Source of the DNA: a virus
DNA: 43,385 bases
Virus genome (UHGV): UHGV-0217911
Strand: one strand, 5' to 3'
Under the pieces are notes generated by a model, which saw only the letters and a list, made by a program, of their open reading frames with translations, was not told the origin of the DNA and made no database searches. Position numbers and translations under genes: made by a program. Of the stretch, positions 16,641-22,245 are shown piece by piece; within the stretch, counting starts at the first letter, position 1, and every line of letters begins with the position of its first letter.

Positions 16641-17135
16641 TTATTTTATAGTTTTTATGAATTCTTTATTAAATCCCTTCGCTTCTCCGGGGTATCTTCC
16701 GAAGACAATTTTTATAAAAACAGAAAAAATAAAGATAGCAACGCTTAACAACAATTGCAGTATCATTGGAACCCAAAGAACTACAGGCTCTATATTCATG
16801 AAACCAAATATTCTTCCGGCGATCATGGCGAAGTACCACACTGTTATCAGCAAACTTAGTGGCATATGAATTACTGATATTACCAATCCAAGAGCATCAG
16901 TAATTCTGTTTTCAAATTTTTCAGGGGAAAACTTTTCTTTAAGGTAATTCAGTGCGCAGGCCTCATTCTCTGGATTTTCAGCATTTTTCCCTATAGCAAT
17001 AGAAATCTCAGATATCCTTGATTCAATTCTTTTACGTTTAATAAAACTAGAAAAAAAGAACCACGCAATCTGCAACCCTATCCCCAGAAATAGAGTTGCG
17101 GCAACTAGCACAGCGTAACTCATAGAATCAGACAC
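16641..17135 (-). CDS. Multi-pass inner-membrane protein in the SieA position (candidate superinfection-exclusion protein)
   Basis: AT-rich minus-strand ORF with three or four hydrophobic helices, between the ejection genes and the immI region. A strong SD (AAGGAGG at 17141-17147) precedes an in-frame GTG at 17135; an ATG at 17123 is the alternative start. Confidence 0.55.
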
Positions 17136-17291
17136 ACCAACCTCCTTAGTTTTGCGCAGGATACCAGATGATAATGTGTAGTTGGAGTAGCGCGGTTGTA
17201 ATGCAAGCATTTTGTTTTGGTTTTATGCTTGCTTGTATGTGTGTACAGTGCATATAATGCAAGCATACATCACAATAAAGGTGCTTGCATT

Positions 17292-18278
17292 ATGACTGAA
17301 AAGAAAAGTGGCGAAGGGAAAGCTAAGGGCGGGATCGCTCGCGCAAAGTCGCTGACTAAAGAGCAGCGTTCTGAAATAGCAAAGAAAGCAGCGGCAAAAC
17401 GATGGGAAGGTAAGCCACTAAGAGCGATCAGAAAGGGTAACTTCATTGATGATTTCGGCATTGATGCAGAATGTTACGTACTTGATGATAATGATAAAAC
17501 GGTTGTAGTTAGTAAAACTGGTCTGGCTAAATTACTAGGAATCGGTGAGCATGGTAGGGATGTAGACCGTTTTCTAAATACGAATTATATGGCTGATTTT
17601 GTTGATCCATTTCTGCTAGAAAAATTCAAAAAACCTCTTATTTTTCAATGGAGAAGTCCGGTCCCAAACTCAGCCCCAAATCCACTCGCTGATGAGGCTC
17701 ATGGTTACGATATTGCCCTTATTGGTGATATAGCCACAGCAATGATTAATGCCGATCGAGCTGGCGCACTACCGCCTTCAAGATCAAAATCTGCCAGCCT
17801 TGCCCAAAGACTTGTTACCGCATCAATGAAAGCAGGGCTTAAAGGACTTGGTTATGCTATTGCAGGATATCGACCTGAAGTACAGGAGGTTATTGATTCC
17901 TTCAAGGCCTTTGTTCGTGAAGAGGCGAGGCAGTATGAAAAGGAATTTCCAGATGAGCTATATGAGGAGTGGTATCGACTGTACGGCCTGAACAGGCCAG
18001 AGAAAGGACGTCCAATTCGTTTTGGGCAACTAACCAACATGCAGATATACACTCCGCTAGCAAAGAGTAAAGGTAAAATCCTTGAACAGATTCGAGCCAG
18101 CCGAGACGAGAACGGAAAACAATCTGATAAGTTGCACCTGTTCCTTTCTGAAATTGGTGTCAAGGCTTTGCGTCAGCATATCGGTAAGCTTCTTGGTGTC
18201 GCAGCGATGAGCGAGACAAGAGAAGAATACGAAAAAGGAATAGAAAAGGTTTTTGGAAGAATAAAACCAGAAATCTAA
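17292..18278 (+). CDS. Hypothetical phage protein (hkcC-position of the immI region)
   Basis: ATG at 17292 lies behind a TATAAT box and repeated ATGCAAGCAT motifs; 328 aa with a basic N-terminus (GGIARAKSLTKEQRSEIAKKAAAKRW). Confidence 0.6.
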   Translation: MTEKKSGEGKAKGGIARAKSLTKEQRSEIAKKAAAKRWEGKPLRAIRKGNFIDDFGIDAECYVLDDNDKTVVVSKTGLAKLLGIGEHGRDVDRFLNTNYMADFVDPFLLEKFKKPLIFQWRSPVPNSAPNPLADEAHGYDIALIGDIATAMINADRAGALPPSRSKSASLAQRLVTASMKAGLKGLGYAIAGYRPEVQEVIDSFKAFVREEARQYEKEFPDELYEEWYRLYGLNRPEKGRPIRFGQLTNMQIYTPLAKSKGKILEQIRASRDENGKQSDKLHLFLSEIGVKALRQHIGKLLGVAAMSETREEYEKGIEKVFGRIKPEI

Positions 18279-18281
18279 TTA

Positions 18282-18309
18282 TAAAACCCACCGTCAGGTG
18301 GGTTTTTTG
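18282..18309. terminator. Bidirectional rho-independent terminator between the hypothetical gene and mnt
   Basis: ACCCACC-gtca-GGTGGGT stem flanked by an A-run and a T-run. Confidence 0.6.
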
Positions 18310-18533
18310 TTTTCTTGCATGTTCCTCAGCGTCTCAAGCAGCGCATCCCTGAATTTGTCAGCCTCTTTCTGAGCAAATTCATTGCTATTAAGCGATCTAC
18401 CACAAACAGCATCTTCGATAATCTGTATTATTTCAGCATTCATGGAACGCTTGTTATGTTGCGCCCTGGCTTTAACCTTTGCCTTTAACTCTTTGGAAAT
18501 CCTAATATTTATTTGCGGCTCTTCGCGTGACAT
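18294..18533 (-). CDS. mnt: Mnt-like ribbon-helix-helix repressor
   Basis: 79 aa; the N-terminal beta-strand/helix pattern INIRISKELKAKVKARAQHNKRSMNAEIIQIIEDAV is Arc/Mnt-like, and the gene is divergent from arc-ant. Confidence 0.7.
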   Translation of the reverse strand: MSREEPQINIRISKELKAKVKARAQHNKRSMNAEIIQIIEDAVCGRSLNSNEFAQKEADKFRDALLETLRNMQENKKPT

Positions 18534-18585
18534 ACCACCTCCATAGCATTTTGGTGATATTACTATTGCATCACTGCGATCACAA

Positions 18586-18604
18586 TGGTATAACGGTTAT
18601 ACCA
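18586..18604. promoter_or_regulatory. Perfect 19-bp palindrome TGGTATAACGGTTATACCA (candidate Arc/Mnt operator)
   Basis: Perfect 9-1-9 inverted repeat in the mnt/arc divergent intergenic region, about 18 bp upstream of the arc ATG. Confidence 0.5.
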
Positions 18605-18621
18605 AATTGATTGGAGGTAAT

Positions 18622-18795
18622 ATGATAGTCAAGTCAGACGCACCAAAGTACCCTTTGCGCATCCCATTAGAGGTTAAGTTAGCAATCGAGAAGTCAGCGA
18701 AAGAAAATGGTCGCTCAATAAATACCGAGATGGTAATGCGGTTGGTGGATAGTTTAAGGCGGGATAGTTCTAAAGGTAATCTAGCAAAAAGTTGA
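18622..18795 (+). CDS. arc: Arc-like ribbon-helix-helix repressor
   Basis: 57 aa; PLRIPLEVKLAIEKSAKENGRSINTEMVMRL matches the Arc RHH pattern, with GGAGG 5 nt upstream of the ATG. Confidence 0.7.
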   Translation: MIVKSDAPKYPLRIPLEVKLAIEKSAKENGRSINTEMVMRLVDSLRRDSSKGNLAKS

Positions 18796-18857
18796 AGCCC
18801 CAACTGCGGTAACAGTCAGGGCTTCGTTATCAACAAATCGGCTTAGGAAATATTGAC

Positions 18858-19736
18858 ATGAAAAGTATAGCAAAGGCACAAAACGATTTCACCATCTTCA
18901 AATTCGGCGACAGTGAAATCCGCGTCATCAACAAGTGCGGTGAGCCGTGGTTTGTAGCTAAAGATGTTTGTGATGCTTTAGCTTTGACTAACTCACGCAA
19001 GGCGCTTACTGCACTTGATGACGATGAAAAGGGAGTAACTTTAAGTTACACCCTTGGTGGTGAGCAGAATCTAAGCATTGTGAGCGAATCAGGTATGTAT
19101 ACATTGGTTCTGCGCTGCCGCGATGCAGTCAATAAAGGTTCAGTCCCACACAAATTCCGCAAGTGGGTAACAGCAGAAGTTCTGCCTTCAATTCGCAAAC
19201 ATGGCGAGTATGTTAAAGGAAAGAAAACCACTGTTGAGGAAAGAACACCGCTACGCGATGCAGTAAACATGCTGGTAGGAAAGAAAGGACTTCGCTATGA
19301 CGATGCATACAATATGGTTCATCAGCGTTTTGGTATTGACAGCATTGATGAACTTTCAATTGAACAAATCCCGCTGGCAGTAGAGTACATCCACAGGGTA
19401 GTGCTTGAAGGTGAATTTATCGGCAAACAAGAGAAGAAAACCAACGAGCTTTCTGCAAAAGAAGCAAACAGCCTTGTATGGTTATGGGATTATGCCAACC
19501 GCTCACAGGCATTATTCCGCGAACTGTATCTGGCGCTAAAACAAATTCAATCGAACTATTCCGGCAGATGCTACGACTATGGCCATGAGTTCTCGTATGT
19601 TATCGGAATGGCGAGAGACGTTTTAATCAATCACACACGAGATGTTGATATTAATGAGCCAGACGGACCAACGAATCTTTCCGCATGGATGAGACTTAAG
19701 AATAAAGAATTACCTCCTTCAGTACATAACTACTGA
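18858..19736 (+). CDS. ant: Antirepressor (Ant) with Bro-N/AntA-like N-terminal domain
   Basis: 292 aa; [15 protein letters not shown]...[18 protein letters not shown] is the Bro-N pattern, and the gene follows arc. Confidence 0.8.
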
Positions 19737-19754
19737 CAGATAACCAACGCAACG

Positions 19755-19779
19755 ACCCAGCTTCGGCTGGGTTTTTTTA
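19755..19779 (+). terminator. Rho-independent terminator after ant
   Basis: CCCAGC-ttcg-GCTGGG hairpin followed by TTTTTTT. Confidence 0.65.
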
Positions 19780-19836
19780 TGCCCAAAATTCATCGTAGCC
19801 ATGCTGCGGCGATTCCTTGTATCTGGAGCAAATTAA

Positions 19837-21915
19837 ATGACAGACATTACAGCTAATGTTGTAGTGAGTATGCCTTCGCAACTCTTCACTATGGCTCGTT
19901 CTTTTAAAGCGGTTGCCAATGGCAAAATTTATATCGGTAAAATTGACACTGACCCGGTAAATCCTGAAAACCAGATTCAGGTTTATGTGGAGAACGAAGA
20001 TGGTTCTCACGTTCCTGTTGCACAGCCAATCATCATTAACTCTGGCGGGTATCCTGTATATAACGGACAGATTGCCAAATTCGTTACCGTGCAAGGCCAT
20101 TCTATGGCTGTTTATGATGCATATGGTGCGCAGCAGTTTTATTTTCCTAATGTGCTGAAGTATGACCCTGATCAGTTTCAGAAGAGGTTGGCATCCTTTG
20201 ATGATGGTGATGGGGATGAATTAGTGTCGGTGAAACAACCATTCCCCGGAGCAGCAAATCAAACTCAACACCAAAAGAACCAACAAATCATTGATGTTCT
20301 TGACTTCGGTGCTCATCCATCGAATGCTGACAATAAAGTAGCTCTGCAATTTGCGCTAGATGCAATATATAGCATTGGAGGAGGTACACTACAGTTTTCA
20401 CTACCAGGCATATATACTTTGCTTTCTGAGTTGCAAATAAAATCAAATACTCACCTAAAGATGACTGATGGCGTAACCATTAAACGTAATTTTTCTAATG
20501 ACGTCATGCTGAGAATAAGCCCTAATACTGGCACTAACATTAAAATAACAGGCGGAATACTAGATGGAGGAGGACAAGACCACCCTACAGATCCTTTTGA
20601 CATCATTGCAGCCTCCTCACCAAGAAATCTTTCTATTGTTGGAGTAACATTTCTTGATGTAGTCGATTTTCATGCTGTAGATATTGCTGACGGGCAAGGG
20701 GTGATTATAAGAGACTGTAAGTTTCTTGGCTTCAAACCACTTTCCAACCGAAATTATTCAGAAGCGATCCAGTTAGATCCGGGGATTGAATCTCTTGGCG
20801 ATTATTACCCAAACATCAATGTTCTTGTTGATAACTGTTATTTTGGTTCAAATCCACAAAATACCACCACTGGGTTTGGGGCGTGGGGGGCGGGGGTTGG
20901 GAACCATGCTAATTCATATGGGAATCAGGACAAAAATATAAGGGTCATAAACTGCAGGTTCGATGGAATGCTCTTTGCCGGGGTAAGGGTTTTCAACTGG
21001 TATGATTGGGTGGTTAGCGGATGCTCTTTCTATAACAGTACCGCGCGAGGAGTTCATGTAACCCCATTCCCATCATCATCAAAACCACAGGGGGCAAGGA
21101 GGGGGCGCATTGTTGGCAATTATTTTGAAGGCGTTAGATCCCCGATTCTTCTGGCTGCACCTACATATCCATATACAGATACATCAGATGCATTTCATGA
21201 AGATATCGTAATATCCAACAATTCCATGTTTATTACAGAGTCTCAATCATATGCAGTAGACGCAAGATGGGTTTCAGGACTAACTGTCACTGGAAACACA
21301 GCAAGAGGAGGAATCGGTTTTTTCAAAGGTGATTTTATTAATAAATCAATCATCTCTAATAATGAATACGATTCAGGAACATCAAGTTCTTTATGGATTT
21401 CTGAAACTAATGCAGAAGAATTTATAGGGTCTGGTTTTTCGCATGATGTTGTAATTTCTAGCAACATCTTTAGAAACATTTCCCTGCATGGGATTCATAT
21501 TAATGGTAAATATTCAAATGTTACTATTCAATCAAACATTATAGTTGGGGTTTCTACCGCAGATAATAACCATAATGGCATACGAATTGACTCTGGTGCA
21601 GAAAATGTAATTGTTAGTTCAAATCAAATTCGTGATGGCGTTGCAAATAATAAACCATCAGTTGGTATATTTGCTACATCAAGCTGTAAGAGCGTGTCAT
21701 TTATAGGGAATGTTTCATTTGGAACATCAGCCACACAGAATAATCAAGCTACAGATAAAAGCTCACTTGTGATATTTGGGCAAGAAGGCAACCCAACATC
21801 TAGCGGAGTTGGAGCACCAGTTGGTTCTATTTACACTCGTTCTGATGGAGGTGGAAATACAGTACTTTATATAAAGGAAAGCAACACAAATGCTACAGGT
21901 TGGGTTAATAAGTAA
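19837..21915 (+). CDS. Tailspike protein: conserved P22-type N-terminal head-binding domain plus a divergent beta-helix receptor-binding domain
   Basis: The first ~110 aa ([13 protein letters not shown]...[25 protein letters not shown]...[24 protein letters not shown]) are P22 gp9-like. The remainder is AT-rich and unlike P22, with repetitive beta-helix-like segments. Confidence 0.85.
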
Positions 21916-22199
21916 AACCAGCATTTAAATACAATATATATCATAAAACTTACATAATAGTTATAACTATAATTCTTGCTTAAGAATTTATAAAAACTGA
22001 GACACACAAAGCTTTGCACTGGATTGCAAGGCTTTGTGCTCTTCTATGCTGAGTGGCTACATGTTTGAAGATCGTTGTGCCGTATTTGTGACATACACAT
22101 GACAACATCATGCATCAGCTTTCTGTTTGTGCCATCAACTATAGCTTAGTGAATGCGGTTAATGCTTGCTAAAACAGATAGTTATGATTGGTGCTACAG

Positions 22200-22245
22200 A
22201 TTCGTAATGCGAAGGTCGTAGGTTCGACTCCTATTATCGGCACCA
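22200..22245 (+). repeat. 46-bp copy of the tRNA-Thr (thrW-type) 3' end from anticodon loop to CCA; attR core of the P22-like prophage
   Basis: ATTCGTAATGCGAAGGTCGTAGGTTCGACTCCTATTATCGGCACCA carries the CGT anticodon loop, T-arm and acceptor 3' strand, but the 5' half of the tRNA is absent. Confidence 0.8.

Follow-up and report, generated by a model that had tools for sequence, protein, structure and literature searches.

The open reading frame at positions 19837..21915 (+) of the virus genome stretch that we analysed (UHGV-0217911, 43,385 nucleotides, hereafter the window) encodes the intact tailspike of a P22-like (Lederbergvirus-type) E. coli prophage integrated at thrW. This tailspike is a mosaic, and its receptor domain occurs in genomes that have the K2 capsule genotype in common. 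The tailspike architecture is nearly certain. We consider it likely that the K2 capsule is the target, and the reading taken whole, that of a prophage tailspike that targets the K2 capsule, is in our judgement probable, if held a little less firmly than the identity of the target.

The gene begins with ATG, encodes 692 amino acids, and has exactly the coordinates assigned to it in the initial annotation. It is the last gene of the prophage and lies where the late region ends, past the ejection-protein genes and the immI block (arc/mnt/ant), which is the position that tailspike genes take in P22-like phages. From the map of open reading frames and the Pfam matches, the late genes upstream in the window encode the terminase, portal, coat, gp4/gp10, needle and ejection proteins; the neighbouring structural genes are all intact, the late genes share 93–96% DNA identity with those of Kapi1, CUS-3, Sf101 and HK620-like phages, and the prophages of E. 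coli strains 755, 4433 and 317 have the same gene layout. The immI-like block (16641–19736) holds a SieA-like superinfection-exclusion gene on the minus strand, a gene with a P63C domain, two repressor genes of Arc/Mnt type, one on each strand, and an antirepressor gene of the Bro-N/P22_AR_C type; its content varies among prophages that have the receptor domain in common. Records of the exact protein come from just two sources, a metagenome scaffold and a Logan contig, and no NCBIfam model matches it.

Upstream of the tailspike gene, and 3' of the antirepressor gene, a consensus scan predicts a terminator-like hairpin with a T-run (19754..19773, +; 8-bp stem with five GC pairs). The 43 nt directly before the start codon (19794..19836, +) form a conserved leader, as seen in a pairwise DNA alignment with E. 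coli 755, in which a different gene lies upstream: columns 1–14 of the alignment diverge, and identity holds from column 15. Because similarity to the 755 prophage begins at 19794, we set the left boundary of this module there; the annotation of CUS-3 has a ‘boundary sequence’ at the place equivalent to this leader. On the other side of the gene, about 125 nt past the stop codon move together with the receptor domain, being common to 755 until about the position of a second predicted terminator-like hairpin (22005..22038, +; found by scan) and divergent beyond it. The right end of the prophage is a 3' fragment of tRNA-Thr that represents attR at thrW (22200..22245, +): prophage-free E. coli genomes match the window from 22200, have a tRNA-Thr annotated at the corresponding position, and show that chromosomal sequence starts approximately 300 nt downstream of the tailspike stop codon. 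The window contains no complete tRNA. The flank is matched at 100% by prophage-free genomes such as those of D8, a dog isolate, and of an O4:H5 strain, and the vat island, with the vacuolating autotransporter toxin gene vat at 35922–40052 (−), follows directly after attR. Many P22-like and Sf6-like prophages carry O-antigen modification genes (gtrABC, acetyltransferase) between the tailspike gene and the attachment site; in the window, there are none in this interval (21916–22199), which fits a phage whose receptor is something other than the O-antigen.

The first 113 residues (19837..20175, +) constitute the virion-anchoring, head-binding domain typical of P22-like tailspikes, and they match the complete profile of Pfam PF09008 (Head_binding; positions 1–113 of 113, E = 1.5e-66). 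In the PDB, 7sg7, 2vky and 1lkt match this domain. Its description in the initial annotation as nearly P22 gp9-like was roughly right, in that it is 73.7% identical to P22 gp9, but P22-like phages of E. coli and Shigella are closer: identity reaches 89.6% to Sf6 gp14 (7sg7), and at the DNA level the closest relatives of the head-binding part are Gally (95.9%) and HK620 (91.7%). We assigned the domain from its identity to solved structures and not from the AlphaFold model, in which its pLDDT falls below 50 because the alignment is shallow there. The spike of P22-like phages is a homotrimer present in six copies per virion, and it is established for this family that the domain docks it to the hub of the tail; the 74–90% identity suggests that the domain would do the same here. 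An antisense open reading frame of 107 aa (19777–20100, −) overlaps the head-binding codons and is probably a chance reading frame in a conserved region.

After a short linker, the protein continues, as P22-like tailspikes do, as a right-handed parallel beta-helix, and the receptor module as a whole comprises an N-terminal cap, a beta-helix of about 14 coils and a small conserved C-terminal module. The cap (aa 118–186; 20188..20394, +), a helix-loop-helix whose helices lie at 125–128, 144–157 and 167–179 in the AlphaFold model, is distantly similar to the equivalent region of the Sf6 tailspike (PDB sequence matches 2vbe/4urr, E = 8e-10). The beta-helix (aa ~183–625; 20383..21711, +), the receptor-binding and presumed depolymerase body, was first described on the basis of repeats in the sequence, and this is borne out by a Pfam PF13229 match in the region after the head-binding domain and by an alignment-based AlphaFold model, computed as a monomer, that forms a right-handed beta-helix with pLDDT above 90 over aa ~150–600. 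When this model was compared with a viral structure library, the tailspike of phage LL11 was recovered at a TM score of 0.92, and most of the next neighbours came from Gram-positive phages, as spikes or pre-neck appendages. The C-terminal module (aa 626–692; 21712..21912, +), recognised from the family alignment, carries the motif G.P..A.VGS..TR.DGG..T.LYVKESGT..TGWV.K, which is conserved throughout the family; from A.VGS onward (aa ~647–692; 21775–21912) it is kept even in members that are only ~30% identical overall. Neither Pfam nor the PDB yields a sequence match for the C-terminal 68 residues, and the module, modelled at pLDDT 48–84, possibly serves in trimer assembly, folding or stability.

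In sequence, this receptor domain is unrelated to the P22 endorhamnosidase, as had been proposed: every P22 chain in the PDB aligns with aa 1–115 alone, the PDB sequence search detected no similarity between the beta-helix and the P22 enzyme, and the protein falls outside the P22 gp9 endorhamnosidase family as defined by beta-helix similarity and an alignable Asp/Asp/Glu triad. It is instead distantly homologous to the pneumococcal protein PfbA and to tailspikes of Gram-positive phages. An exhaustive HMMER search among 1.84 billion proteins recovered 1496 cluster representatives with E ≤ 1e-3, of which 63 had E ≤ 1e-30, and the 90% cluster of the domain numbers 336 sequences; none of the sequenced phages in the collection has a receptor domain of more than 50% identity.

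The exchange of receptor domains among tailspikes is textbook knowledge, and the mosaic is in itself ordinary. For Lederbergvirus in particular, both the modularity of the spike and its transfer across genera are well documented (PMC10408124). In the present protein, similarity to other phages breaks at the linker and module junction (aa 114–125; 20176..20211, +, delimited by megablast end points and allele differences): matches to 27 phage records at 84–96% identity, among them Gally, HK620, CUS-3 and Sf6, all end at nt 339–345 of the gene (20175–20181; aa 113–115), and the AlphaFold model has a helix at aa 111–119. Besides this break, three independent lines of evidence demonstrate the mosaicism. 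The first is uneven divergence from the 755 allele, which has 23 of its 27 nucleotide differences within the first 345 nt (all before nt 286; 6.7% divergence) and only four in the remaining 1734 nt (0.23%), indicating that the receptor part recombined onto diverged head-binding alleles. The second is the variety of backbones, in that the receptor domain is 99.1–99.8% identical among prophages that are integrated at dacD, argW, ybhB-bioA and, in the window, thrW, and that differ in their immI blocks; such conservation over differing backbones and four attachment sites requires recent horizontal spread and not descent. The third is the variety of anchors, since at least three further N-terminal parts occur with the receptor family in other phages, and the family is found fused to a head-binding domain in a Rahnella protein, to the Pfam Tail_spike_N domain in others and to a short anchor in Vectrevirus. 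The proposal that the gene is a mosaic produced by horizontal exchange is therefore upheld.

These patterns also bear on whether the tailspike still has a function. The window holds only the late half of a prophage, and one carrier genome, A1.S1.18, annotates the gene in two pieces, as might be expected if it were a decaying remnant of a defective prophage whose host distribution merely reflects clonal descent. Yet the 692-aa reading frame and the structural genes around it are intact, the domain is conserved at the level given above across different backbones and attachment sites, and three of the four receptor-domain differences from the 755 allele are synonymous, such that we regard decay as very improbable.

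Base composition is a poorer guide to the junction than had been supposed. The receptor part was initially annotated as AT-rich and compositionally distinct, and it does lie below the structural-gene backbone (39.7% vs. 49.0% GC; z = -7.4), but so does the head-binding part (42.3%), and the difference between the two parts is not significant (z = 0.91). The sole markedly AT-rich part is the last third, aa 463–692, with 36% GC and a GC3 of ~20%. GC content is uneven within the receptor domain (20761–21915), where aa 309–462, the most conserved core, has 45% GC vs. the 36% of aa 463–692 (z = 3.15); this could stem from an older internal recombination or from differing constraints.

To what surface structure is the receptor domain directed? 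Full-length copies are present in 24 of 5426 complete E. coli genomes, and we asked which surface loci accompany them by using chimeric queries, each consisting of the receptor domain and a marker gene, and counting the match places per genome. The O25b marker was the wzy gene of a labelled ST131 genome; the K2 marker was a 1.5-kb piece of the TagF-like CDP-glycerol glycerophosphotransferase gene in kps region 2 of the ST131 strain 4433.

Our first hypothesis was that the spike is an endoglycosidase of the O25b O-antigen, following the classical pattern of P22, Sf6 and HK620. The O25 wzy gene is found in 22 of the 24 carriers vs. 462 of the 5426 genomes overall (Fisher p = 4e-22), three carriers are labelled O25b:H4-ST131, and the spikes of Lederbergvirus prophages usually match the O-type of the host (PMC10408124). 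In addition, LL11-like phages, when exposed to one panel of strains, infected only the ST131 strain EC958 (PMC10433417). But all 22 O25 genomes reduce to two insertions, at dacD and argW, within a single clone, ST131. The carriers outside ST131, strains 755 and 317, lack O25 wzy, so that no one O-antigen cluster is common to all carriers, and O25 wzy is likewise absent from all 13 genomes that match the 3-kb flank of the window at 99.9–100%. Moreover, the O-antigen cluster of strain 755 (read at L010 24576–32657) is not O25: it contains no rml genes, its flippase gene wzx is truncated by IS1, and its polymerase gene is split, so this strain may make little or no O-antigen. On these grounds we rejected O25b specificity as the main explanation, and consider it improbable.

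The K2 locus, in contrast, accounts for every carrier. The region-2 gene is present in all 24, including 755 and 317 (in the canine strain 317, as deduced solely from the second match place), but in just 141 of the 5426 genomes overall (Fisher p = 1e-39). Most carriers are clonal ST131 and the association rests on four or five independent acquisitions; when it is counted as four independent events, p is ~5e-7. If the K2 background were merely permissive, the far more numerous other genomes should also carry the domain, and yet it is in none of the 5285 without the K2 region-2 gene. That the locus is K2 is evident from strain 4433, whose five region-2 proteins carry accessions identical to those in the K2 reference strain CFT073, and over 7633 nt region 2 is identical to that of CFT073 at 99.97% in 4433 and 99.96% in 755, in which the kps locus is intact. 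The carriers thus have a single kps region 2 genotype in common, as expected of a capsule-specific spike, and the view in the initial annotation that the exchanged domain is specific for an O-antigen finds no support and is probably wrong. Because the window derives from a metagenome scaffold, the K2 association is drawn from other carrier genomes and not from its own host; D8, the best match to its 21-kb flank, is positive for the K2 gene. Counting against K2 as target, only four of the 17 genomes that share the flank of the window at 99.9–100% have this gene. A further counter-point is that a virion would still face the O-antigen beneath the capsule, and a single spike would not clear both.

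In strains 4433 and 755, the K2 kps locus is situated at the edge of a pheV-type island that also contains ag43, iha, sat and iuc/iutA. The two strains have the sat-iutA-iuc segment in opposite orientations, and 755 has pap and hly as well.

A literature search returned no direct characterisation of an O25b- or K2-specific tailspike or of the specificity of LL11-type second spikes. Strain EC958 is presumably not K2. Because it is infected by LL11-like phages, and because the Vectrevirus homologues are less than 50% identical to the receptor domain, specificity is not transferable from those phages to the tailspike in the window. An independent hint towards K2 comes from the Vectrevirus phage vKMB47, which possesses a K5 lyase spike and a second spike, was propagated on CFT073 and produces haloed plaques; its sibling vKMB14, which shares the K5 lyase and differs in the second spike, did not infect CFT073 (PMC11162368). 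The second spike of vKMB47 is a 48%-identical homologue of the receptor domain.

If the spike recognises the K2 capsule, its family alignment offers a candidate for the site at which it does so. Among 24 sequences, H279, D282, Q312 and H357 are invariant, and R305, E309 and D314 are 92–96% conserved. These residues (20671..20907, +) make up a polar centre that aligns one-to-one with H293/Q296/Q331/E333/H377 of PfbA, and this pattern (H..(Q/D), Q.(E/D), G.H), along with sequence and fold, places the domain in the PfbA-like family. We view the polar centre as a candidate active or ligand site, and, going by the PfbA alignment, its residues would cluster in space.

Homology to PfbA raises the alternative that the spike binds without cutting. 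PfbA of Streptococcus pneumoniae (3zpp, 4mr0), the closest solved relative, is a cell-wall-anchored adhesin; Suits and Boraston likened its centre to a metal site with basic residues on its flanks, yet detected neither lyase activity nor glycan binding and saw ‘no obvious catalytic machinery’ (PMC3718772). No enzymatic activity has been demonstrated for any member of this beta-helix family, which is unclassified in CAZy. The centre in the tailspike family is, however, more acidic than that of PfbA, with D282 in place of Q296, D314 in place of E333, and an additional, near-invariant E309 together with R305, as one would expect of an enzyme; and vKMB47, which has a homologue, makes haloed plaques, although its K5 lyase could also be their cause. 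A related alternative is that the spike targets some other surface structure inherited together with the K2 kps locus, given that this locus resides on a large pheV island that also encodes Ag43, Iha, Sat and further surface factors. Against this, the content and order of the island differ between 4433 and 755, but region 2 has nearly the same sequence, that of CFT073, in both. We consider an adhesin-type spike or a co-inherited target, taken together, to be unlikely, though less so than O25b specificity.

Under the K2 reading, the receptor would be the polysaccharide that forms the K2 capsule of extraintestinal E. coli. This teichoic-acid-like polymer of galactosyl-glycerol-phosphate would be bound lengthwise in the groove of the beta-helix and, by analogy with other tailspikes, cut at the conserved His/Asp/Gln/Glu centre, such that the virion could tunnel through the capsule and reach the outer membrane. 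The K2 polymer is not known to contain uronic acid, which makes beta-elimination an unlikely mechanism, and cleavage by a glycosidase or a phosphodiesterase is possible. The receptors of Gram-positive phages are typically wall teichoic acids, and the kinship of the domain with the spikes of these phages is circumstantial evidence that fits a teichoic-acid-like substrate. The teichoic-acid-like nature of K2 is itself attributed to Jann et al. 1980 (as cited in PMC13171606). Capsule-specific phage depolymerases listed for E. coli are directed at K1, K3, K5, K7, K12, K20 and others, and K2 is absent from the list (PMC12488582). More tentatively, and with far less confidence than we have in K2 as target, we raise the possibility that this spike is the first identified E. 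coli K2 depolymerase, neither a classical glycosidase nor a lyase but an enzyme of teichoic-acid type that would act on a phosphodiester or glycosyl-glycerol linkage through a centre of two histidines and acidic residues.

The K2 capsule is that of CFT073/ST73 and of a subset of the pandemic ST131, and a K2-specific spike, if confirmed, would be of use as a reagent in typing, as a candidate anti-virulence enzyme and as a building block in the engineering of phage host range. Because the fold family has no assigned chemistry, its biochemistry could define a new class of enzyme. Should the activity prove to be of teichoic-acid type, it would suggest a function for the entire PfbA-like family, including the spikes of Bacillus and other Gram-positive phages, the second spikes of Vectrevirus and possibly PfbA, and the module might have evolved against the wall teichoic acids of Gram-positive bacteria before being recruited against teichoic-acid-like capsules of Gram-negative pathogens. 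The case also indicates that inferring an O-type from the spike of a Lederbergvirus prophage can mislead in encapsulated ExPEC.

Among known systems close to this tailspike are the second tailspikes of Vectrevirus (LL11 gp053, vKMB47, 101101UKE1 and K-01), which are homologous to the receptor module over its full length, with 46–49% identity over aa 113/116–692. In these phages, the homologue is the exchangeable spike and adjoins a K5-lyase spike, as it does in LL11. Unlike the prophage protein, these spikes have a short or otherwise different N-terminal anchor and no head-binding domain, and they belong to lytic, T7/SP6-like viruses; at less than 50% identity, their specificity need not equal that of the tailspike described here.

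With the spikes of P22 (gp9), Sf6 (gp14) and HK620 (gp9), the tailspike shares its head-binding domain (74–90% identity), the position of its gene, which follows immI and closes the late region, and its general plan of anchor, linker, right-handed beta-helix and C-terminal module. Past the Sf6-like cap, however, the catalytic beta-helices of these spikes have no sequence similarity to it, and their catalytic acid pairs cannot be aligned. Furthermore, those three spikes cut O-antigens, whereas the present one tracks capsule type.

A precedent for a capsule-directed spike on this backbone is CUS-3, a P22-like prophage of K1 E. coli whose spike acts against a group 2 capsule and not against an O-antigen. 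Its head-binding part is 91% identical in DNA sequence to that in the window, and the junction and the ‘boundary sequence’ are in the same places. The receptor domain of CUS-3 is an endosialidase from another fold family, and its substrate is the polysialic acid of K1, as opposed to the glycerol-phosphate polymer of K2. By analogy, then, the tailspike in the window would work most like that of CUS-3, though with an unrelated receptor module.
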